From: Candidatus Aenigmatarchaeota archaeon
GTDB taxonomy: Archaea > Aenigmatarchaeota > Aenigmatarchaeia > CG10238-14
Length of the DNA: 64,000 nt
Assembly: GCA_030018415.1 (NCBI GenBank)
Contig: JASEGC010000001.1
Coordinates: 323,067 to 387,066 of the forward strand
Direction: 5' to 3'
Below the pieces are notes generated by a model that was not told where the DNA came from, searched no databases, and saw only the letters and a program-made list of their open reading frames with translations. Within the stretch, counting starts at the first letter, position 1, and each line of letters starts with the position of its first letter. A program made the position numbers and the translations under genes. Shown piece by piece: positions 4,020 to 41,992 of the stretch.

Positions 4020-5003
4020 TCAAAATCTTTTAAAATACGGAGGATTTACCATAAACCTTCTTATCTGCAATTCTGTTACCTTCCTTCCCCTTTGTACCTT
4101 TTTTCTTAATTTTAATACTCTTGGCAAATCCTTCATAGCGTCTTTTATTGCTTTTAGATTGACCAATGAACCTCTTGCAAGACCTCTTAAAATTGATAGC
4201 ACATTCCAAGTGATAATAAATGGCGAATAGAGTATTAAAGAACTTAGAGAAAAATTTTTAATTATCATCCAAAGCCAATTTCTGTGTGCATAGTAAGCTC
4301 CCCTTTCTGAATACTTTCCCATAGTTGTGCCAACTTCATGTTGAACTGTAACAGGAACATAAACGGATTTCCACCCCCTTAATCTCATCCTCCATCCCAA
4401 ATCAGCATCTTCATTGTAAATAAAAAATTCTGAATCTAACAAACCAACATCTTCTAATGTTTTTTTTCTGTACATACAGGCAACATTGTTCACTGCAAAA
4501 ACTTCTTCAACTTTATCATATTGGCCAATGTCTTTTTCTTTCCAACCTCGGTATCTCACTAGACCATCTTTAGAAGCTATAGTACCAGCAGCGTTGATTA
4601 TCTTTGGATTACGCATAAACACAAGTTTTGGACCAATAGCACCGATTTTTTCATCAGATTCAGCTATTTTTACCATTTCCATTAACCAATTTTTATTTGG
4701 TTTTGTGTCATTTGCTAAATTGCAGATGTACTTACCTTTAGCTACTCTCATTCCAACGTTGTTACCTTCTGCACAACCAAGATTTCTTCCATTTTCTATA
4801 ATTTTTACTTCTGGATAGTTCTTTTTTACAAATTTTACTGAGTTATCTGTAGAACCATTATCGGAAAGAATAACTTCAAAACTTGGATAGGTTTGATTAA
4901 AAACAGCATCTAAACAACGCTTAATAATTTTTTTACCATTCCAATTAAGAACTACTACAGAAACTAAAGGATGCTTACTTTTTAACTTAATATTATTCAC
5001 CAA
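4020..5003 (-). CDS. Glycosyltransferase family 2
   Basis: 'VSVVVLNWNGKKIIKRCLDAVFNQTYPSFEVILSDNGSTDNS' GT2 N-terminal signature. Confidence 0.8.
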   Translation of the reverse strand: MVNNIKLKSKHPLVSVVVLNWNGKKIIKRCLDAVFNQTYPSFEVILSDNGSTDNSVKFVKKNYPEVKIIENGRNLGCAEGNNVGMRVAKGKYICNLANDTKPNKNWLMEMVKIAESDEKIGAIGPKLVFMRNPKIINAAGTIASKDGLVRYRGWKEKDIGQYDKVEEVFAVNNVACMYRKKTLEDVGLLDSEFFIYNEDADLGWRMRLRGWKSVYVPVTVQHEVGTTMGKYSERGAYYAHRNWLWMIIKNFSLSSLILYSPFIITWNVLSILRGLARGSLVNLKAIKDAMKDLPRVLKLRKKVQRGRKVTELQIRRFMVNPPYFKRF

Positions 5004-5107: not shown

Positions 5108-6790
5108 TTAGTGAGTAGTGTTTAATACAATAAAAGTTCCAATCTTGAAATTTGGGTATTTTTCAATGGCATAATTCAATTGGTTTGGCAAACCAGCTAA
5201 AATATACTCGTCTATTATGGCATATCTAACATTGTATTTCAAAATGGTATCTTCAAAGGCAGTAAAGTTTTTTACTATCATATGATGTCTACTCACACTA
5301 AAAAACGGTTGGTTAGAATAAATCGCAACATCTGGTGGGGAGATGATTGTTTCATCTGGGCTAACATTATTTTTGACGAATTTAACTGTTTCTTCCAAGC
5401 CATATGATCCGTAATCGTATATCGTATCAAAAGTAGCTAAGATATGAATGCCGTTGATGTAAATGGAAGTTGCTAACAGAAGTACAACTACATAAAAAGC
5501 CAAATGATTCTGATACTTCTTATTGAAAATAAATGACAAAAGTATAACCGGTGCGAAATAAATCGCGCTAACTAATGCGACATCTCCTAAATTGTAACCC
5601 AGTCTAGGTGTTATAGTAAATGGGTCTTTTAGGAGTGATGTATAGTAAATTATCAGAAGAAACAAAATCACAACACCAAGTAAACATTGCTTTAGTTTGA
5701 TAGGTCGAATTACACCAGATACCCAATAAGCTATTAAAATGGAAAATGGGGCTAGGAGTACGTAATGGTATCTAGGGTAACCGTACGGAGCTGATGGCAA
5801 GATAATTGTATATAGAATTAAAACAAGTAGCCCATAAATTAACAAAAAATAACATTCATCTCTCTTATGTTTTGAAAACAATTTAAAAAAGAAAAATAAA
5901 CTAGTAGTGTGTATTAACACAAAAAATGCTGGAGAGAGTCTAAATGATAAAATTTGCAATATATTCAGAATGTATAATGGTTTCAAAAAGAATGTGGACG
6001 ATACAGAAGCTTGCCACTTAAAGATACAATTAAAATCAAGGTTATACACTGTTGTAGCAACGTACCATATAGAAAGCATTATAAAAATTCCAATCAACGC
6101 TATCACTATCGAATATACAATACCAAGCTTGAATTTTCCTTTTAGAATGTAATATGATAAAACTACAGGTGGCAAAAGTATGGGTGTGGTTTCTTTTACA
6201 AGGAGGCTCAATCCGAACATTAAACCAAGACCCAACAAGTATTTATTTTTTAATCTAAGATCTTTTGACTTTTTTACAATCCAAATAAATAAAAACACGA
6301 AAGAGAGGAGTACAAAATTAAGTACGGTGTTATCATTTTCTATAAGTAATGAACCACTTACAGCAAATGGGGTAATTGTATAGAAGAATATACTAAGATA
6401 CGCAAGTGCCATATTCCTTTTTCCAAACAGCTCTTTTGTTATGAGATATACTAATACAAGAGAAAATATGTTAAATAAAAATGCGAATGACCTTATAGAA
6501 ATAAACGATAGACCAAAAATACGTGTATAAGCTGTTAATAACAAAAGCCATGTTGGTATATGCCATATTGGATAGCATTCTTTTAGGTTGAAATCTTCTC
6601 CACCTCGATATATATCAAGATATAATATACCCTTATTTAACCCATCCACAACTTTCATAAAAATAGCTTCATCTTTTACAGGTGGTTTATTAAGACCACT
6701 TATAACAAAAATCAAATATAGTACAACTGATATATATGCAAGAAGCTTTGACAAAATTTGCCATGGTATTTTCTTTGTCTTCATTTTCAT
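5108..6790 (-). CDS. Polytopic membrane protein, putative GT-C fold glycosyltransferase (ArnT/PMT-like)
   Basis: 560 aa, more than 10 hydrophobic segments; sits in the glycosylation cluster; family assignment tentative. Confidence 0.4.
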   Translation of the reverse strand: MKMKTKKIPWQILSKLLAYISVVLYLIFVISGLNKPPVKDEAIFMKVVDGLNKGILYLDIYRGGEDFNLKECYPIWHIPTWLLLLTAYTRIFGLSFISIRSFAFLFNIFSLVLVYLITKELFGKRNMALAYLSIFFYTITPFAVSGSLLIENDNTVLNFVLLSFVFLFIWIVKKSKDLRLKNKYLLGLGLMFGLSLLVKETTPILLPPVVLSYYILKGKFKLGIVYSIVIALIGIFIMLSIWYVATTVYNLDFNCIFKWQASVSSTFFLKPLYILNILQILSFRLSPAFFVLIHTTSLFFFFKLFSKHKRDECYFLLIYGLLVLILYTIILPSAPYGYPRYHYVLLAPFSILIAYWVSGVIRPIKLKQCLLGVVILFLLIIYYTSLLKDPFTITPRLGYNLGDVALVSAIYFAPVILLSFIFNKKYQNHLAFYVVVLLLATSIYINGIHILATFDTIYDYGSYGLEETVKFVKNNVSPDETIISPPDVAIYSNQPFFSVSRHHMIVKNFTAFEDTILKYNVRYAIIDEYILAGLPNQLNYAIEKYPNFKIGTFIVLNTTH

Positions 6791-35294: not shown

Positions 35295-36251
35295 GTGCAT
35301 GACTTGAAAGAAAAAAAAATTGAACTGGAAGACATTCCTGGTGTTGGTCCTAAACTTGCAGATAAATTAAGGGAAATGGGATTTTCTGACCCGATGTCCA
35401 TTGCAGTAGCTTCACCAAGCGAGTTAGCGAGTATTCTGGAGATAGGGGAAGTCACTGCCACGAAGATCATCAACAAAACAAGGGATATGCTTGAGATTGG
35501 TTTTACTTCTGCTGATAAAGTCTGGGAGCAGAGACAAAAGATCGGTAAGATTACAACAGGAAGTAAAGCTCTGGATGATTTATTGGGTGGGGGAGTTGAG
35601 ACTCAAGCGATAACAGAAGCATATGGAGCTTTCGGCTCAGGAAAAACTCAAATTGGGTTTCAACTTTCTTTGAACGTTCAGTTACCACCAGAAAAAGGAG
35701 GATTAAACGGAAATTGTTTGTTCATTGACACGGAAGCCACTTTTAGGCCAGATCGTGTATTACAAATGGCAAAATCGATGGGTTTGGATCCTGATAAGGC
35801 TTTGAAGAACATTTATGTCGCCAGGGCATATGATTCAGACCATGAGATTTTCCTCATAGATAAAGCCGGAGAAATGATAAAAGAAAAGAACATAAGACTC
35901 GTGATCATCGATTCTTTGACCTCACACTTCAGGGCAGATTATGTTGGAAGAGGAGAATTAGCACCTAGACAACAGAAGTTGAATAAACTGTTACATAATC
36001 TACAACGTTTAGCCGATTCTCAGAATGTAGCGATTTTTGTCACGAATCAAGTGTTAACCAACCCTGCAATTTTGTTCGGTGATCCTACGATGCCGATTGG
36101 GGGCCATGTGCTCGCGCATCAAAGTACGTATCGGGTTTATTTAAGGAAATCTTCTGGCGAAAAAAGGATTGCAAGGATGATGGATAGTCCCAATTTACCT
36201 CCTGGCGAGTGTGTGTTCAAGATTACTCCTGATGGTATCAGAGATGTTTAA
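35295..36251 (+). CDS. radA: DNA repair and recombination protein RadA
   Basis: GTG start; N-terminal HhH '[12 protein letters not shown]'; Walker A '[11 protein letters not shown]'; Walker B '[12 protein letters not shown]'. Confidence 0.9.
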
Positions 36252-37058: not shown

Positions 37059-37943
37059 ATGTTAGAAATATCATCACCTATCGAGAATCTAATAATCAAG
37101 AGAGCAAATGAGAAAATTTTAGACGAGAGATTGTTTCTTGGGATAAAAAACAAAATGATAACAGGAGAACAATGGTTTAGGAACCCTGATAATTGGTATA
37201 ACATAACAGCGTTTGCTAATCCACACAAAACTCCATACAGTGAACTCAGGATACTCTTTGAGAATGAGGATGAATTAAAACCTCTTTTAGATAATACTAT
37301 AAAGATTTTTTACGGTATCGGAATGGGAGAAACAGAGACTTTAATCGTCAAATGGGACCTGGAGAATAATAATTACACTGAAGTTATAGCTATAGATGCG
37401 ATAAATGTTTTTATCGAGAATTTTATTCAGATATTGAGAAATTTAAAATACAACTACTCAAAGAGTGAGATATTCTTTAGAGGGATACGTGACCTATTCG
37501 AAAATCTTAATAAAGATGATCTATTTTTTTCAAGGTCAAAGTTTGAGAATGCTACTCATATTTGTTTTGGCAACACAATCGGTAATTTTGAACAACAAAA
37601 TGAGATCTTTACAATTTTTCAGAAAAACATGGATAGAGGAGACAAACTCTTACTTGGCATTCATTTAAATAAATTTCCAGAAAAAACCTTCTCTGAGTAT
37701 GCAAACAATGTTTTGTTTAAGAAACTTATTCTCAATTCTATAAAATTTGATGGAGACCTTTATTGGAAATACAATAGAGATGATGACAGAGTCGAGGCTT
37801 GGTTCGGAGATGTTTTAGCTTTCCAATCAAAAAAATATGATTTGAAAAAACTCCTTGAGTTTGTGAAAGAATTTGGTTTAATTTCAATCAGAACTTTCGA
37901 ACATCAAGAATTCGCAGTTGTTTTGTTTGAAAAAGAAAACTAA
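37059..37943 (+). CDS. Methyltransf_33/EgtD-like family protein (putative SAM-dependent methyltransferase)
   Basis: 'FGNTIGNFEQQNEIFTIFQKNMDRGDKLLLGIHLNK' resembles the EgtD-family 'STIGNF...GD.LLIGVDL.K' block; weak assignment. Confidence 0.35.
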   Translation: MLEISSPIENLIIKRANEKILDERLFLGIKNKMITGEQWFRNPDNWYNITAFANPHKTPYSELRILFENEDELKPLLDNTIKIFYGIGMGETETLIVKWDLENNNYTEVIAIDAINVFIENFIQILRNLKYNYSKSEIFFRGIRDLFENLNKDDLFFSRSKFENATHICFGNTIGNFEQQNEIFTIFQKNMDRGDKLLLGIHLNKFPEKTFSEYANNVLFKKLILNSIKFDGDLYWKYNRDDDRVEAWFGDVLAFQSKKYDLKKLLEFVKEFGLISIRTFEHQEFAVVLFEKEN

Positions 37944-37954
37944 TTTTTTATCTA

Positions 37955-37991
37955 GGACATTGTCCACTATTTATTTACTTATGTATATAAA
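37955..37991 (+). promoter_or_regulatory. Putative promoter/operator: perfect palindrome GGACAtTGTCC followed by TATA-like box
   Basis: 'ggacattgtcc' at 37955-37965 and 'tatataa' at 37984-37990, about 35 bp upstream of the wHTH gene start at 38025. Confidence 0.4.
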
Positions 37992-38024
37992 TCTTTATAT
38001 ATTATATATGTCCAATTATAAATT

Positions 38025-38231
38025 ATGGTCAGAAAACCAGACCCAGAAAAAATTGAAAAAATAAGAAAACTGTTAAAAGAAAATCCAGAAGGTTTGTGGA
38101 TCAGAGAAATTGCAAGAAGGTCAAATTTAACAAAGTCTACAGTGAGCAAATACGTTAATGAATATATGAAAGATGAGATAGAGGATGTCTGGAAGCGTGG
38201 GTTTATAAGGATAGTGAGGTTGAAGGAATGA
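38025..38231 (+). CDS. Small winged-helix DNA-binding protein
   Basis: 68 aa; 'GLWIREIARRSNLTKSTVSKYVNEY' HTH; stop overlaps the start of the next gene (ATGA). Confidence 0.5.
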   Translation: MVRKPDPEKIEKIRKLLKENPEGLWIREIARRSNLTKSTVSKYVNEYMKDEIEDVWKRGFIRIVRLKE

Positions 38232-39715
38232 ACTGGAGAAATGGATTGAATTTCGGTCAAGCAAAATACGAAGTTATCGATAGGGACACCTTTATTCCAT
38301 ACATAAGATCTGATTTTAGGGCTGTTATTCCATTCGAGATTTTAATAGACTTTACTGAGCAAAGGCGGAATGATTTGGTTGCATTATTAAAAATTACTGA
38401 TCGAGTATCCAAAAAGAGTAATATCAGAGTAAAGAAATTGTGTAGAAGTGGCGAGAGTTTAAGTTTTTCTTTAGAAAAAGAAAGAAACCTGAAGGATATT
38501 ATCGTGAAAGTTCTGAGTATTAAAACAGTACAAGACTGTGTAAATAGAATGTCATCGAATTCAAGAGAAAACATCCCCACGTTGTCTATTCTTCCAAGTC
38601 ACACTTCAAATTATTCATTTCCGTACCAGAATTCTAAGAGAGTGACTCCTATATTTGCTTTCGAGCTAGAAGATGCGGTTTATTGCATCTCTCATTTTGG
38701 CTGGAAGAACATAATTTTCAAGAAAGAAATAATGCCAGACGAACTTACTGCCCTTGCAATTGGTCTTTACTTTGCTGAAGGCGGAAAAGTCACAGCATCT
38801 TTCACGAATTCTTCTCCAAAAATTATTAACGTTATGTTAGATTTTATAGAACAATACTCAAACATTGAAAGAGACAAAATCAACGCCAGAATATACTGTC
38901 ACACCAGACTTCAAAATAAAAAAAAGAATTTAGAAGAATTTTGGTATTCTCAAGTAGGGATTTCTAATTATGGGAGTAAGCTTCATTTGAGTGAAAATTC
39001 TAGATCACCTTGCGGAACATTAGAACTGAACTTTTGTAGTCAGATATTGAAGAATCTCTTGTGTGGTTTAATCAAAAAGGCTTTTGACGATCCTTTAACG
39101 TTCGATCCAAAAAACATAATACGAGGGATATTTTCTGGCGATGGTTGTCCGATACAACAAACTAAATATTTTATTTGCCATCATATAACCCTTGATAAAA
39201 ATTACTGGAAGAGTCAATTTGATTTTATAGACAAATTAATTTCTCGGCATGGTATACAGCTTAAAACAGTCCCATCTAATCCGAATAAAATAAAAGACCA
39301 GATCAGGGCTGTTATCTACAGTAATTGGTATACCAATATGTATTTCATGTTTCTGGATCCTTACAGGTTCGAATTAATAAACAGAGAAAAATTTGCAAGA
39401 AGATTTTTATCGTTAGAAAAAACAAGATTGTTTCTAAGTTTGGAGGACGGATGTTTAATAAAAGGGATAGATCTAGTTAATGGACTAAGACCACTTATCA
39501 GCTTGAGAAACCATGACTTCATAAATTTAGTTCAAAAGAGTCCTAAACCCAACAGAAAATACGAAGTCCAATTTTCAGAGAATGGTTTACAAGTTAGGAA
39601 AATTCTACAAGATTTTCTTAATAATGTCTATCCTAAGTATAGAAAAGAATTGGAGAATTTTAAGGTTCTATTGGGAAAGTTTGATTTGCTAGAAAAAAAC
39701 AATAGAGGATGCTAG
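38228..39715 (+). CDS. Free-standing double-motif LAGLIDADG-like (homing-endonuclease-fold) protein
   Basis: 495 aa; two motifs about 120 aa apart: 'LTALAIGLYFAEGGKVTAS' (I-DmoI-like) and 'IRGIFSGDGCPIQQTKYF...DKLISRHGI'; no intein (Hint) or intron context evident. Confidence 0.45.
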   Translation: MNWRNGLNFGQAKYEVIDRDTFIPYIRSDFRAVIPFEILIDFTEQRRNDLVALLKITDRVSKKSNIRVKKLCRSGESLSFSLEKERNLKDIIVKVLSIKTVQDCVNRMSSNSRENIPTLSILPSHTSNYSFPYQNSKRVTPIFAFELEDAVYCISHFGWKNIIFKKEIMPDELTALAIGLYFAEGGKVTASFTNSSPKIINVMLDFIEQYSNIERDKINARIYCHTRLQNKKKNLEEFWYSQVGISNYGSKLHLSENSRSPCGTLELNFCSQILKNLLCGLIKKAFDDPLTFDPKNIIRGIFSGDGCPIQQTKYFICHHITLDKNYWKSQFDFIDKLISRHGIQLKTVPSNPNKIKDQIRAVIYSNWYTNMYFMFLDPYRFELINREKFARRFLSLEKTRLFLSLEDGCLIKGIDLVNGLRPLISLRNHDFINLVQKSPKPNRKYEVQFSENGLQVRKILQDFLNNVYPKYRKELENFKVLLGKFDLLEKNNRGC

Positions 39716-39727
39716 TGGTGATTTTAG

Positions 39728-41005
39728 ATGAAAGTAGTGATGGATGCGCACATCCATTCTCGGTTTAGTAGAGCCACCAGTGGAAACATAACGATTTCGA
39801 ACTTGGAAAGGTATGGAAGGATGAAAGGTGTCAACCTCATCGGTACAGGGGATTTTACGCATCCCACGTGGTTGTCTGAGTTGAAAGAAAATTTGATAGA
39901 AGATGGTTCTGGGATATTAAAAACAAAAACAGGGTTTAATTTTATTTTGACGGCTGAAATCTCAAATATTTATGTTCAAGACGGTAAACAAAGAAGAGTT
40001 CATAATATTATCCTTTCCCCAAGCTTTGATGTTGTAGAACAAATAAATAGTGAATTATTGAAACATGGAAGATTGGATTATGACGGTAGACCGATTTTTG
40101 GTTTCACTTGTTCTGAATTAGTGGAGATGATAATGTCAATCTGTAGGGAATGTATGATTATCCCCGCTCACATACTTACCCCATGGTTCTCAATTTTTGG
40201 CTCCAAATCTGGTTTTGACTCAGTAGAAGAATGCTTCAAAGACCAGACAAAACATATTCATGCCCTAGAGACAGGCTTATCAAGCAATCCTGCCATGAAC
40301 TGGAGAGTTTCTTCTTTAGATAAATACACATTGGTTTCCTTTTCAGATGCCCACTCATGCAATCCTTGGAGGTTAGGTCGCGAGAATTGTGTATTAGATG
40401 TTAACAAACTCACTTATAAAGAAATTACTGACACCATTAAGAAAAAAGAAAAAGGGTTTTTGTTCACCACCGAATTCTTCCCTCAGGAAGGAAAGTATTT
40501 CTTCGATGGGCATAGAAACTGTAACGTATCATTACATCCAAAAGAATCGATTAAAATGAATAATTTCTGCCCCGTTTGCAAAAGAAAATTGACAGTAGGA
40601 GTGCTACATAGGATAGAAGAATTGGCCGATAGGCCCGAAGGATTCGTTCCAAAGAATGTCATACCTTTCAAGAGTTTGATACCACTTTCTGAATTGATTA
40701 AAACCATACTGAGAATAGATACGATATACTCAAAAACTGTTTGGGAAGAATACAATAAACTGATAAAGGAATTTAAGAATGAATTGAACGTTTTACTTGA
40801 CGTTCCAAAAGAAGAGTTGATGAAGGTAACTTATGAAAAGGTAGCAGATACGATAATAAAAGTCAGAGAAGGAGAAGTGAAATACATCGCTGGTTATGAT
40901 GGTGTTTATGGAAAGCCTGTGTTCGATGAAGAAGAATTTAAGAAACGTGAAGAAAAACAGAAAGACGTAAAAATTCATACTCAAAAAAGATTAATCGATT
41001 TTTAG
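39728..41005 (+). CDS. PHP-domain metal-dependent nuclease, EndoQ-like (TIGR00375-type) with C-terminal zinc ribbon
   Basis: 'MDAHIHSRFSRATSGN...NLIGTGDFTHPTW' PHP N-terminus; 'CPVCKRKLTVGVLHRIEEL' zinc finger; about 425 aa as in archaeal endonuclease Q. Confidence 0.5.
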   Translation: MKVVMDAHIHSRFSRATSGNITISNLERYGRMKGVNLIGTGDFTHPTWLSELKENLIEDGSGILKTKTGFNFILTAEISNIYVQDGKQRRVHNIILSPSFDVVEQINSELLKHGRLDYDGRPIFGFTCSELVEMIMSICRECMIIPAHILTPWFSIFGSKSGFDSVEECFKDQTKHIHALETGLSSNPAMNWRVSSLDKYTLVSFSDAHSCNPWRLGRENCVLDVNKLTYKEITDTIKKKEKGFLFTTEFFPQEGKYFFDGHRNCNVSLHPKESIKMNNFCPVCKRKLTVGVLHRIEELADRPEGFVPKNVIPFKSLIPLSELIKTILRIDTIYSKTVWEEYNKLIKEFKNELNVLLDVPKEELMKVTYEKVADTIIKVREGEVKYIAGYDGVYGKPVFDEEEFKKREEKQKDVKIHTQKRLIDF

Positions 41006-41075
41006 GGTCTGTAGTCTAATGGTAGGACACTGCTCTCACACAGCAGAGAATTGGGTTCGATTCCCAACAGACCCA
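41005..41075 (+). tRNA. tRNA-Val (anticodon CAC)
   Basis: Manual cloverleaf: acceptor GGGTCTG/CAGACCC, D arm GTCT-AATGGTA-GGAC, anticodon arm CTGCT-CTCACAC-AGCAG, T arm TTGGG-TTCGATT-CCCAA, discriminator A; no encoded CCA. Confidence 0.8.
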
Positions 41076-41153: not shown

Positions 41154-41576
41154 ATGGGGTTTATGGAAGAGGTTTACAGAAAATTAGGAGAAGACGAGAA
41201 GAAAAAGGTCGAAGAAACTATCGCGAAAATCCTTTCAAAGTACAAGTTTATCGACGCGGCCCTAATTTTCGGCTCTTTTGTGACGAGAAAATTTTTCAGG
41301 GATATAGATGTGGCAATTGTTTGTGAAAAAGTAAGAGAAAAAGATTTGGAAAGAATTGCCCTTGAAATAGAGAAAAAAATCAAGATTCCGGTTGATCTAA
41401 AAGTTCTTGATGAACTTCCTCTCAAACTTAAGTTTTTTGTGATAAGACAAGGAAAACTTGTGATGGTAAACCAAAAAGAAAGATATTTTATTGTAAAACA
41501 TAGTGTTATCACTCAATTTCTTGATTTTAAGCCATTTCTCGAGAGATACACAAAAGGTGTACTAGGATGGAGTTAA
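41154..41576 (+). CDS. Minimal nucleotidyltransferase (MNT) antitoxin-like protein
   Basis: 'LIFGSFVTRKFFRDIDVAIV' GS...D.D NTase motif; 140 aa. Confidence 0.7.
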   Translation: MGFMEEVYRKLGEDEKKKVEETIAKILSKYKFIDAALIFGSFVTRKFFRDIDVAIVCEKVREKDLERIALEIEKKIKIPVDLKVLDELPLKLKFFVIRQGKLVMVNQKERYFIVKHSVITQFLDFKPFLERYTKGVLGWS

Positions 41577-41992
41577 CAGTCGAGCATTTGAAAGAGTTCA
41601 AACGTTATCTTGATGTTTGGAAGAGGTATAAAAAGGAAGTAAAGCTTAAGGATTTTACTGAGAACATAGATAAGCAGAACATGGTATTACATGCGATGTT
41701 TGTTGCGATACAATCTGCGATAGATTTGGCGAACGATATGATAGTTTCTCGTAATCTAGAAGAGCCAGAAACCTATAGAGAGACCTTTGAAATACTTGGA
41801 AAGAACAAAATAATTCCCTCTAATCTTTCCTCGAGACTTGCATCTCTCGCGGGTTTTAGAAATGTCATAGCACATGTTTACTTTAGATTAGATGCGAAGC
41901 GTGCATACAAAGTTTTTCAACATGGCTATATAACATTAGGAGAATTTGAGAAATTTATAGAAAGAATAGTGAAAAAGAGTAAGGAAAAGTAA
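41567..41992 (+). CDS. HEPN (DUF86) domain protein, toxin partner of the MNT
   Basis: 'GFRNVIAHVY' R-X4-6-H HEPN motif; overlaps the upstream MNT gene by 10 nt. Confidence 0.7.
   Translation: MELTVEHLKEFKRYLDVWKRYKKEVKLKDFTENIDKQNMVLHAMFVAIQSAIDLANDMIVSRNLEEPETYRETFEILGKNKIIPSNLSSRLASLAGFRNVIAHVYFRLDAKRAYKVFQHGYITLGEFEKFIERIVKKSKEK

Follow-up and report, generated by a model that had tools for sequence, protein, structure and literature searches.

Free-standing genes for LAGLIDADG endonucleases are well known in organelles and, to our knowledge, poorly documented in archaeal chromosomes outside introns and inteins. WhiA, a bacterial transcription factor that derives from LAGLIDADG proteins and is present in all Gram-positive bacteria, does not have the catalytic acidic residues of the LAGLIDADG enzymes. 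In fungal mitochondria, free-standing LAGLIDADG and GIY-YIG homing endonuclease genes (HEGs) are found beside atp6 or cob together with a duplicated fragment of the host gene (PMC6279837). The DNA studied here is a 64-kb window from the metagenome-assembled genome of a Candidatus Aenigmatarchaeota archaeon (contig JASEGC010000001.1), in which the gene of a 495-amino-acid (495-aa) LAGLIDADG protein lies in front of a gene for endonuclease Q (EndoQ), a nuclease with a PHP domain, which makes nicks in DNA on the 5′ side of deaminated bases (PMC4357722). Positions are those of the window unless a related locus is named; related loci are labelled with L-numbers and related proteins with P-numbers. 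We propose with moderate confidence that a promoter with its operator, a small winged helix-turn-helix (wHTH) gene and the LAGLIDADG gene make up a mobile cassette, for which the EndoQ 5′ end in DPANN archaea is the sole address known. The explanation we favour, and regard as reasonably probable, is that of a homing-type selfish cassette, which was targeted at the EndoQ 5′ end and then came to drive EndoQ from its own regulated promoter.

The first-pass annotation of the window, made from the sequence, had described the segment 37944–39715 as a LAGLIDADG-fold gene coupled to a small wHTH gene behind a palindrome. The 495-aa open reading frame (ORF) with its two LAGLIDADG motifs is indeed present at 38228–39715 on the plus strand, and its product is identical to the database entry 'hypothetical protein QMD36_02175', encoded on a contig of 610 kb. 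The gene of the 68-aa wHTH protein precedes it at 38025–38231 on the same strand. The stop codon of this gene (TGA, 38229–38231) overlaps the start codon of the LAGLIDADG gene (ATG, 38228–38230), and this ATGA overlap at 38228–38231 supports the translational coupling of the two genes. The unit reaches past the annotated segment, since the downstream EndoQ gene at 39728–41005, also on the plus strand, is locked to the cassette as its host gene. It starts 12 nucleotides (nt) past the LAGLIDADG stop codon and encodes a 425-aa protein, which matches the EndoQ of Pyrococcus furiosus (5zb8) over the full length, residues 4–414, in a phmmer search (E 5.4e-53); the match takes in the PHP domain, the Zn-binding CxxC region and the C-terminal domain. 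The TIGR00375 score of this protein is 197.9 bits, below the equivalog cut-off of 326.6, and the database record names it 'endonuclease Q family protein'. The whole segment 37944–41005 can be read as an operon, and fairly probably is one, consisting of the promoter with the operator, the small wHTH gene, the LAGLIDADG gene and EndoQ. EndoQ is predicted to be co-transcribed with the cassette as the last gene of this operon.

Related loci were gathered by protein look-ups and by scans of genomes and metagenomes; the scan of genome contigs with one peptide pattern yielded four loci. EndoQ directly follows the LAGLIDADG gene on the same strand in 20 of the 21 distinct loci with enough flanking sequence. 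In the remaining locus, L022 (390–2840), the two genes converge, and the LAGLIDADG gene abuts EndoQ at its 3′ end. The inspection of homologs and their genomic contexts, which the first-pass annotation had recommended, thus places EndoQ beside the LAGLIDADG gene in all 21 loci. The junction of the two genes is usually formed by an ATGA overlap or by a 13-nt overlap, and nearly all loci show either a stop-start overlap or a short spacer. This tight coupling would also be expected if the LAGLIDADG protein had been domesticated, either to regulate the EndoQ operon in the manner of WhiA, by means of its AbrB and wHTH domains, or to assist EndoQ in repair as a second nuclease. We consider domestication unlikely, and the distribution of the two genes is one reason for this. 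EndoQ forms at least 8000 clusters of the window type (E<1e-40) and 2663 clusters of a second deep type (E≤1e-60), whereas the LAGLIDADG family comprises about 17 clusters at 90% identity and a few more from the scans. Among the thousands of DPANN homologs of EndoQ, a cassette neighbour is found in about 30 (less than about 1%). More than 120 EndoQs are nearer to the window EndoQ (59–65% identity) than any cassette-linked EndoQ (≤57%), and the three closest relatives that were looked up all lack the LAGLIDADG gene. This indicates that EndoQ does not need the LAGLIDADG protein.

Presence and absence of the cassette can be compared directly in two syntenic genomes. The EndoQ of L038/L039, a Nanoarchaeota metagenome-assembled genome, is 87% identical to the EndoQ of L031. 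The synteny of L038 and L031 extends upstream to a 305-aa gene (62% identity) and downstream to the genes for PAC2, Nop10, eIF2-alpha, S27e, L44 and GINS. The ATG of EndoQ is preceded by a spacer of 41 nt in L038 and by about 1.33 kb with the cassette in L031 and L035. In L031, the native spacer TTATTTCTTTTTTAT... can still be made out on the left side of the cassette. By this sequence comparison L038/L039 is an empty site, and the cassette is present and absent at the same site in syntenic genomes. The same loci are informative about another explanation, according to which the LAGLIDADG and EndoQ genes move together as a gene-replacement cassette that overwrites the resident EndoQ and leaves a 5′ stub of it behind. 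The constant contiguity of the two genes is in agreement with such a pair. However, EndoQ and its flanks in L031 and L035 are syntenic with the empty L038 at the 87% identity given above, and only the 1.3-kb LAGLIDADG segment differs.

Comparison of the proteins points in the same direction. The trees were constructed by neighbour joining (NJ) and carry no bootstrap support values. The short-form LAGLIDADG proteins of L026, L028, L030, L032 and L033 share 57–66% identity with those of L025, L031 and L035, whereas the EndoQs of the two groups share 30–34% identity and belong to two deep types. The same mismatch between LAGLIDADG protein and EndoQ is seen in the pair L004 and L006, which belong to the long form of the protein described below. 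The Spearman correlation of the pairwise LAGLIDADG and EndoQ identities is 0.03. These comparisons show that the LAGLIDADG phylogeny differs from the EndoQ phylogeny, and by this comparison the LAGLIDADG gene has moved between deeply divergent EndoQ lineages. Because close LAGLIDADG relatives precede EndoQs of both deep types, the two genes have not co-diverged, and we regard their movement as a pair as improbable. Tree incongruence and the empty site also speak against domestication, since both show mobility. Distant relatives with the AbrB-LAGLIDADG-wHTH architecture adjoin other housekeeping genes, encoding Pelota, an AP endonuclease and a YchF-like GTPase. Such varied neighbours would be expected if free-standing endonuclease genes of one family had settled at different addresses.

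Further evidence for the EndoQ address is provided by the DNA upstream of the cassette. About 12 loci contain, directly upstream of the cassette, an ATG-led fragment that encodes a canonical EndoQ N-terminus. The stubs of L001, L019 and L021 comprise 37–43 aa (E 1e-16 to 1e-21) and are 48% identical to the complete EndoQ downstream; in L001 this identity extends over the first 43 residues of the downstream protein. The stub of L034 is 24 aa long (E 4e-7). The remaining stubs read MKIIADLHIHSHYL* in L006, MKLFDADLHFHG in L024, MFADLHIHG in L011, MDIIGDLQIHTR in L026, MIIADLQIHC* in L028, MEIIADL*LH in L030, MDFIADLQLHSRT* in L032, MFADL in L025 and MIIADLHDNK in L040, where asterisks denote stop codons. 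The in-frame stop codons in several of them indicate that the stubs are decaying. They end in or just past the conserved ADLHIHS motif. In L025 and L040, a type-1-like stub stands before a functional EndoQ of type 2 (MSDFIECNVDLHMHG), so that the stub has travelled with the cassette at least in these lineages. The canonical type-1 stub of L006 (MKIIADLHIHSHY) likewise stands before a type-2 EndoQ. This arrangement, and the identity of only 48% between the L001 stub and the downstream EndoQ N-terminus, would also result from replacement of EndoQ by the pair; displaced 3′ fragments of EndoQ were searched for downstream of the cassette and none were found. The stubs are either insertion scars or portable homology arms, and both ways of reading them tie the history of the cassette to the 5′ end of EndoQ. 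In the window, no EndoQ stub was detected upstream of 38025 with tblastn and an N-terminal hidden Markov model. For genome annotation, the stubs provide an explanation of the short orphan ORFs that occur upstream of the cassettes. With the empty site, the tree incongruence and the sporadic distribution, they favour one of the two possibilities that the first-pass annotation had left side by side, the selfish module; the other, a domesticated endonuclease, we retain as the unlikely rival.

Two further ideas about the EndoQ N-terminus were considered and rejected. An element-borne replacement of the EndoQ 5′ segment, giving a chimeric EndoQ, does not agree with the functional N-termini, which are type-specific from the first codons and match L038. 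Variants of the PHP motif (DAHIH in the window and DLQIH in the L026 group) were considered as immunity mutations, and they are common in cassette-free EndoQs: among 119 EndoQ sequences, DLQ[IV]H was found in 29 and DAHIH in at least 5. As an observation in its own right, the position of the first His in the PHP motif is often occupied by Gln in DPANN EndoQs (DLQIH or DLQVH, the 29 of 119 sampled; L026, L028, L030, L032 and L033; P0166–P0284). The metal-binding motif of the characterised EndoQ is therefore not strictly conserved in the DPANN group.

The central region of the 495-aa protein is a two-domain LAGLIDADG core of approximately residues 170–395, encoded at 38735–39412. Motif 1, LAIGLYFAEGG (residues 176–186, nt 38753–38785), carries E184 (nt 38777–38779) at the catalytic position, and motif 2, IIRGIFSGDGC (residues 297–307, nt 39116–39148), carries D305 (nt 39140–39142). 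The two acidic residues are separated by 121 residues, and both motifs match the LAGLIDADG pattern residue for residue. In an alignment of 17 homologs with 35–55% identity, LYFAEGGK is invariant, including E184, and position 305 is occupied by D in 13 and by E in 4 sequences. The conservation of the catalytic acidic residues, which the first-pass annotation had proposed to check, thus extends to both motifs; they occupy the last-but-one position of the motif, that of the metal ligands in this superfamily. The AlphaFold model of the protein, built on the same alignment, has a pLDDT of 88.3 and a pTM of 0.87, and it places the motifs at the C-terminal ends of the helices 172–184 and 294–305, in line with the superfamily arrangement of two LAGLIDADG helices packed at the interface of two alpha-beta-beta-alpha-beta-beta-alpha domains. 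The top Foldseek matches in the PDB are all LAGLIDADG proteins, namely PI-SceI, I-DmoI and the N-terminal domain of WhiA (probability about 1.0), with TMt values of 0.50–0.57 for I-DmoI and 0.58 for WhiA (3hyj). A profile search of 1.8 billion representative proteins revealed a wider family with 505 matches at E≤0.001. Pfam LAGLIDADG_3 was matched by 27 of the 46 sampled members of this family (best E 3.8e-11), and the family profile matches I-Tsp061I (2dch) at 4.9e-5 and I-DmoI at about 5e-3. The model, the Foldseek matches and the family profile confirm the LAGLIDADG fold that had been read from the motifs. Taken together, the protein is, as predicted from its sequence and model, a free-standing single-chain LAGLIDADG enzyme that has kept both catalytic acidic residues and would be expected to cleave DNA.

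The top position of PI-SceI among the Foldseek matches for the whole model, and the end of the stubs at the ADLHIHS motif, which is a typical kind of intein site, are the observations in favour of a third explanation. In this explanation, an intein or intron formerly split EndoQ at the PHP motif, and the present LAGLIDADG gene would be what is left of it after it had turned into a gene of its own. We regard this as very improbable. The root-mean-square deviation (rmsd) of the PI-SceI alignment is about 25 Å, so that only the endonuclease core fits, and the N-terminal domain is an AbrB-like barrel and not a Hint domain. Hint and Intein_splicing domains were sought in the 495-aa protein with Pfam and gave no match, and Rfam at the gathering threshold detected only three tRNAs and no intron in the window, in agreement with the original placement of the gene outside any intein or intron. 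The gene is a separate ORF between protein-coding genes; it has a promoter and a start codon of its own and is followed by a complete EndoQ.

The LAGLIDADG gene is maintained under purifying selection, as judged from the pairwise dN/dS values of close relatives, which amount to 0.10–0.27 for the LAGLIDADG gene and 0.04–0.12 for EndoQ. Nearly all cassette copies are intact; in L021 the frame is disrupted near codon 30. Selection and the conserved acidic residues point to a working enzyme and not to a relic. Intact frames and a dN/dS of 0.10–0.27 are at the same time among the points in favour of domestication, as is the combination of a LAGLIDADG core with a C-terminal helix-turn-helix, which parallels WhiA at the TMt of 0.58 mentioned above. 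Against it stand the retention of both catalytic acidic residues, which WhiA has lost, and the lack of any match of the 495-aa protein to the WhiA models of Pfam. In the wider family, LAGLIDADG_WhiA was touched by only 2 of the 46 members.

The core is flanked by extensions on both sides. The first-pass annotation had estimated them at about 170 and 150 aa; the N-terminal figure holds, whereas the C-terminal extension is shorter, at about 100 aa, because the core ends near residue 395. Residues 1–170, modelled alone with AlphaFold, reached a pLDDT of 85.5. Their best Foldseek match is PhS018 (2glw; TMt 0.61, rmsd 3.1 Å, probability 1.0), with a weak E value of 0.056. PhS018 is a single-chain AbrB-like swapped-hairpin barrel. 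The other Foldseek matches of this region, such as norovirus P domains, are noise, and that to 2glw is the only meaningful one. Pfam MazE_antitoxin/SpoVT-AbrB (PF04014) was matched by 3 of 46 relatives (best E 7.7e-7). The N-terminal extension is thus predicted to be an AbrB-like swapped-hairpin barrel of about residues 15–105 (38270–38542), and a small beta domain (residues 118–165) connects it to the core. The C-terminal region (about residues 397–484, 39416–39679) gave profile matches to MarR/SlyA structures, with E 0.0097 for 3nrv and, for the family profile, E 1.2e-6 for 1lj9. The helix-helix-strand-strand pattern at residues 413–449 of the model fits a wHTH with a recognition helix and a beta wing; the MarR-like winged helix (about residues 397–450) is followed by a long helix (451–484). 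This C-terminal region is absent from the short-form clade (about 415–425 aa; P0014–P0017). According to the model and the profile matches, the 495-aa protein is built from two accessory DNA-binding modules, the AbrB-like barrel and the MarR-like wHTH, around a catalytic-looking core.

The 68-aa protein encoded in front of the LAGLIDADG gene passes the Pfam HTH_24 model with 26.5 bits (cut-off 21.9, E 4.6e-6), which confirms the winged-helix assignment of the first-pass annotation. Orthologs with 55–66% identity are encoded in the same position in L004/5, L010/17 and L024, and they occur only in long-form cassettes with the palindrome. The perfect palindrome GGACAtTGTCC at 37955–37965 and the distal T-rich TATA-like box TTTTTTATCTA at 37944–37954 (plus strand) are both found where they had been annotated, the palindrome following immediately after the box. 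The palindrome begins 11 nt past the stop codon of the upstream gene. In the 64-kb window, the pattern GGACA-N0-4-TGTCC has this sole match, with 0.12 expected; at least one match was obtained in 12 of 100 shuffles, so the window palindrome alone is not significant. In the 402,744 nt of all loci and the window, the pattern has nine matches, eight of which lie at the cassette promoter, in five independent lineages. GGACA-N1-3-TGTCC is found at the 5′ boundary of the cassette in L004/5, L006/9, L010/17 and L024. In the long forms, it is immediately preceded by TTTATATA or TTAATA. The conserved promoter begins directly after the stub, and in the short forms it reads TTTATATAGARGTATATCC...ATTATA..ATG.

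The promoter module of the window is duplicated. The distal copy has the perfect palindrome, and the proximal copy has the proper TATA-to-ATG geometry and only a half-site. The proximal TATA box TTTATATA (37994–38001, plus strand) is centred 27 nt before the ATG of the wHTH gene, a leaderless geometry, and the TGTCC half-site at 38009–38013 (plus strand) appears to be the remnant of the operator. In an alignment by eye, the window reads TTTATATA-TTATATATGTCC-AATTATAAATT-ATG and L004 reads TTTATATA-GGACAATGTCC-CATTATATATGT-ATG. The wHTH ATG is located 12–17 nt after the palindrome in L004, L010/17 and L024; in L004, the TATA box and the palindrome are followed by 12 nt before the ATG, the same spacing as in the proximal copy of the window. 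A site between the TATA box and a leaderless start is the classic position for an archaeal repressor. Since the palindrome occupies this position in five lineages, the small wHTH protein, a putative repressor of the cassette, probably has its operator here. Autoregulation by this protein would be the simplest way to read the arrangement. In L006, where the LAGLIDADG start follows about 60 nt after the palindrome, there is no wHTH gene, and two tandem operator-like copies, TAATGGCACAGTTGCACC and TAATGGGACAGTTGTCCC, are found at 5893–5940 (the same in L009). Another protein, perhaps the LAGLIDADG protein, may therefore bind this site. A conserved operator-like site that the LAGLIDADG protein could bind, and the L006 palindrome without a wHTH gene, count in favour of the domesticated regulator. 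Two variants of the region from the promoter to the wHTH gene were observed in addition. L022 has two direct GGACA half-sites (305 and 312) upstream of the TATA box instead of the palindrome. In L018 (135–340), a GC-rich insert of about 330 nt divides the cassette wHTH gene in two; this insert matches Rfam HEARO over the full model (56 bits, E 3.6e-10, below the gathering score of 83). HEARO is the RNA that accompanies HNH nucleases of the IscB type; the short contig shows no nuclease ORF.

Under the homing explanation that we prefer, the endonuclease would cut cassette-free EndoQ alleles in or near the 5′ end. Repair from a cassette-bearing copy would then install the cassette, with homology arms provided by the stub on the left and by the body of EndoQ on the right. 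Driven by the TATA box of the cassette, EndoQ would continue to be expressed from its place at the end of the newly formed operon. With EndoQ expression kept, the cost to the host would be low and a simple loss of the cassette would be costly. The 68-aa wHTH protein would bind GGACA-N-TGTCC between the TATA box and the start codon and throttle transcription of the cassette.

Several points weigh against this homing explanation. The mobility of the cassette rests on comparison of loci, and cleavage, target site, repair route and repression are inferred. The 495-aa protein itself has no Pfam or NCBIfam match at E≤1, and a direct PDB sequence search with it gave nothing useful; the fold is therefore demonstrated by way of the model and the profiles of relatives. 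A simple LAGLIDADG cut, with its 4-nt 3′ overhang, does not give rise to a stub, which must be either a displaced resident 5′ end or a travelling arm. L038 could have arisen by precise loss of the cassette and would then not be a never-invaded site. The dS of the LAGLIDADG gene is lower than that of the adjacent EndoQ in six of six close pairs, which fits a later spread of the cassette; this is weak because dS is near saturation. Homing requires DPANN cells to exchange DNA, which has hardly been documented directly. The tight coupling to EndoQ and the three DNA-binding modules would also suit a regulator. Finally, the window and L010/L017 share the neighbourhood on the RadA side at a protein identity of only 55%. 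Together with the lack of a stub in the window copy, this suggests long vertical inheritance while intact, which is unexpected for a purely selfish gene without continued homing and is in keeping with domestication of the protein in the lineage of the window and L010. The window cassette looks old, as it has no stub, a duplicated promoter and a RadA side in common with L010/L017.

The genes surrounding the operon are as follows. RadA is encoded 1–3 kb upstream of the cassette at 35295–36251 in the window, at 4030–4971 in L010 (L010/L017, 73% identity) and at 858–3380 in L007, where an intein containing a LAGLIDADG_3 domain interrupts it. Immediately before the cassette, the gene at 37059–37943 resembles genes of histidine-specific S-adenosylmethionine-dependent methyltransferases (Methyltransf_33, E 2.4e-8; the EgtD model scores far below its cut-off), and it is not conserved beside the cassette in other loci. 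The EndoQ stop codon shares its last base with the start of a tRNA gene (41005–41075, 70.4 bits), so that the right edge of the operon abuts the tRNA. Just downstream, at 41154–41992, an overlapping gene pair encodes a minimal nucleotidyltransferase (Polbeta, E 4.8e-16) and a HepT-like HEPN RNase (E 3.3e-27). This pair is a typical MNT/HEPN toxin-antitoxin module.

Full-text literature searches returned no paper that links LAGLIDADG enzymes with EndoQ and none that describes this family in DPANN archaea. The combination of an AbrB and wHTH fusion, an address at the EndoQ start codon, a portable 5′ stub, a wHTH/operator module and a location in DPANN chromosomes is absent from the literature searched. 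We therefore suggest, only tentatively, that the cassette represents a previously undescribed cellular homing element, characterised by start-codon insertion at EndoQ across DPANN, the portable stub, promoter takeover with a repressor and dependence of the host gene on the cassette. In a bolder version, the endonuclease would have been co-opted with EndoQ as a two-nuclease module for repair or defence. If the homing explanation is true, the cassette would be a clean natural example of a selfish nuclease that invades a protein-coding locus without splicing, through insertion at the start codon and provision of the promoter. It would also imply DNA exchange and recombination among DPANN archaea, direct evidence for which is scarce. 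The roughly 30 diverged single-chain LAGLIDADG scaffolds, with their modular AbrB and winged-helix additions, could yield new rare-cutting specificities.

Comparison with the known systems shows which features of the cassette are shared and which are not. Like the cassette protein, I-DmoI and I-Tsp061I have two motifs per chain, a terminal acidic residue in each and the same core fold. They are encoded in rRNA introns and consist of the core only (about 180–220 aa), whereas the cassette protein is free-standing, 495 aa long and about 12–14% identical to them, and adds the AbrB-like barrel, the small beta domain and the MarR-like winged helix. WhiA has two LAGLIDADG domains and a C-terminal helix-turn-helix, as does the cassette protein, which differs from it in its two acidic residues, its sporadic occurrence and its lack of a WhiA Pfam match. 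In HO and PI-SceI, the LAGLIDADG core is supplemented by further DNA-binding regions, which lengthen the site that is recognised. The cassette protein resembles them in this respect, but has an AbrB-like barrel and a winged helix instead of a Hint domain and zinc fingers. With regard to the genetic arrangement, Seg and Mob of phage T4 and F-CphI, which lies beside psbA in cyanophages, are similar to the cassette in that each is a gene of its own, with a separate promoter, that was inserted between host genes next to a conserved one and is found in some relatives and missing from others. These phage enzymes belong to the GIY-YIG or HNH families, whereas the cassette encodes a LAGLIDADG protein in cellular DPANN genomes; in contrast to them, it always adjoins one and the same gene at the 5′ end and takes control of that gene's transcription. 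In the HEGs of fungal mitochondria, the duplicated piece of the host gene is the C-terminal (3′) end and lies downstream. The stub of the cassette, in contrast, is N-terminal, includes the start codon and lies upstream, and the cassette, unlike those genes, also supplies a new promoter.

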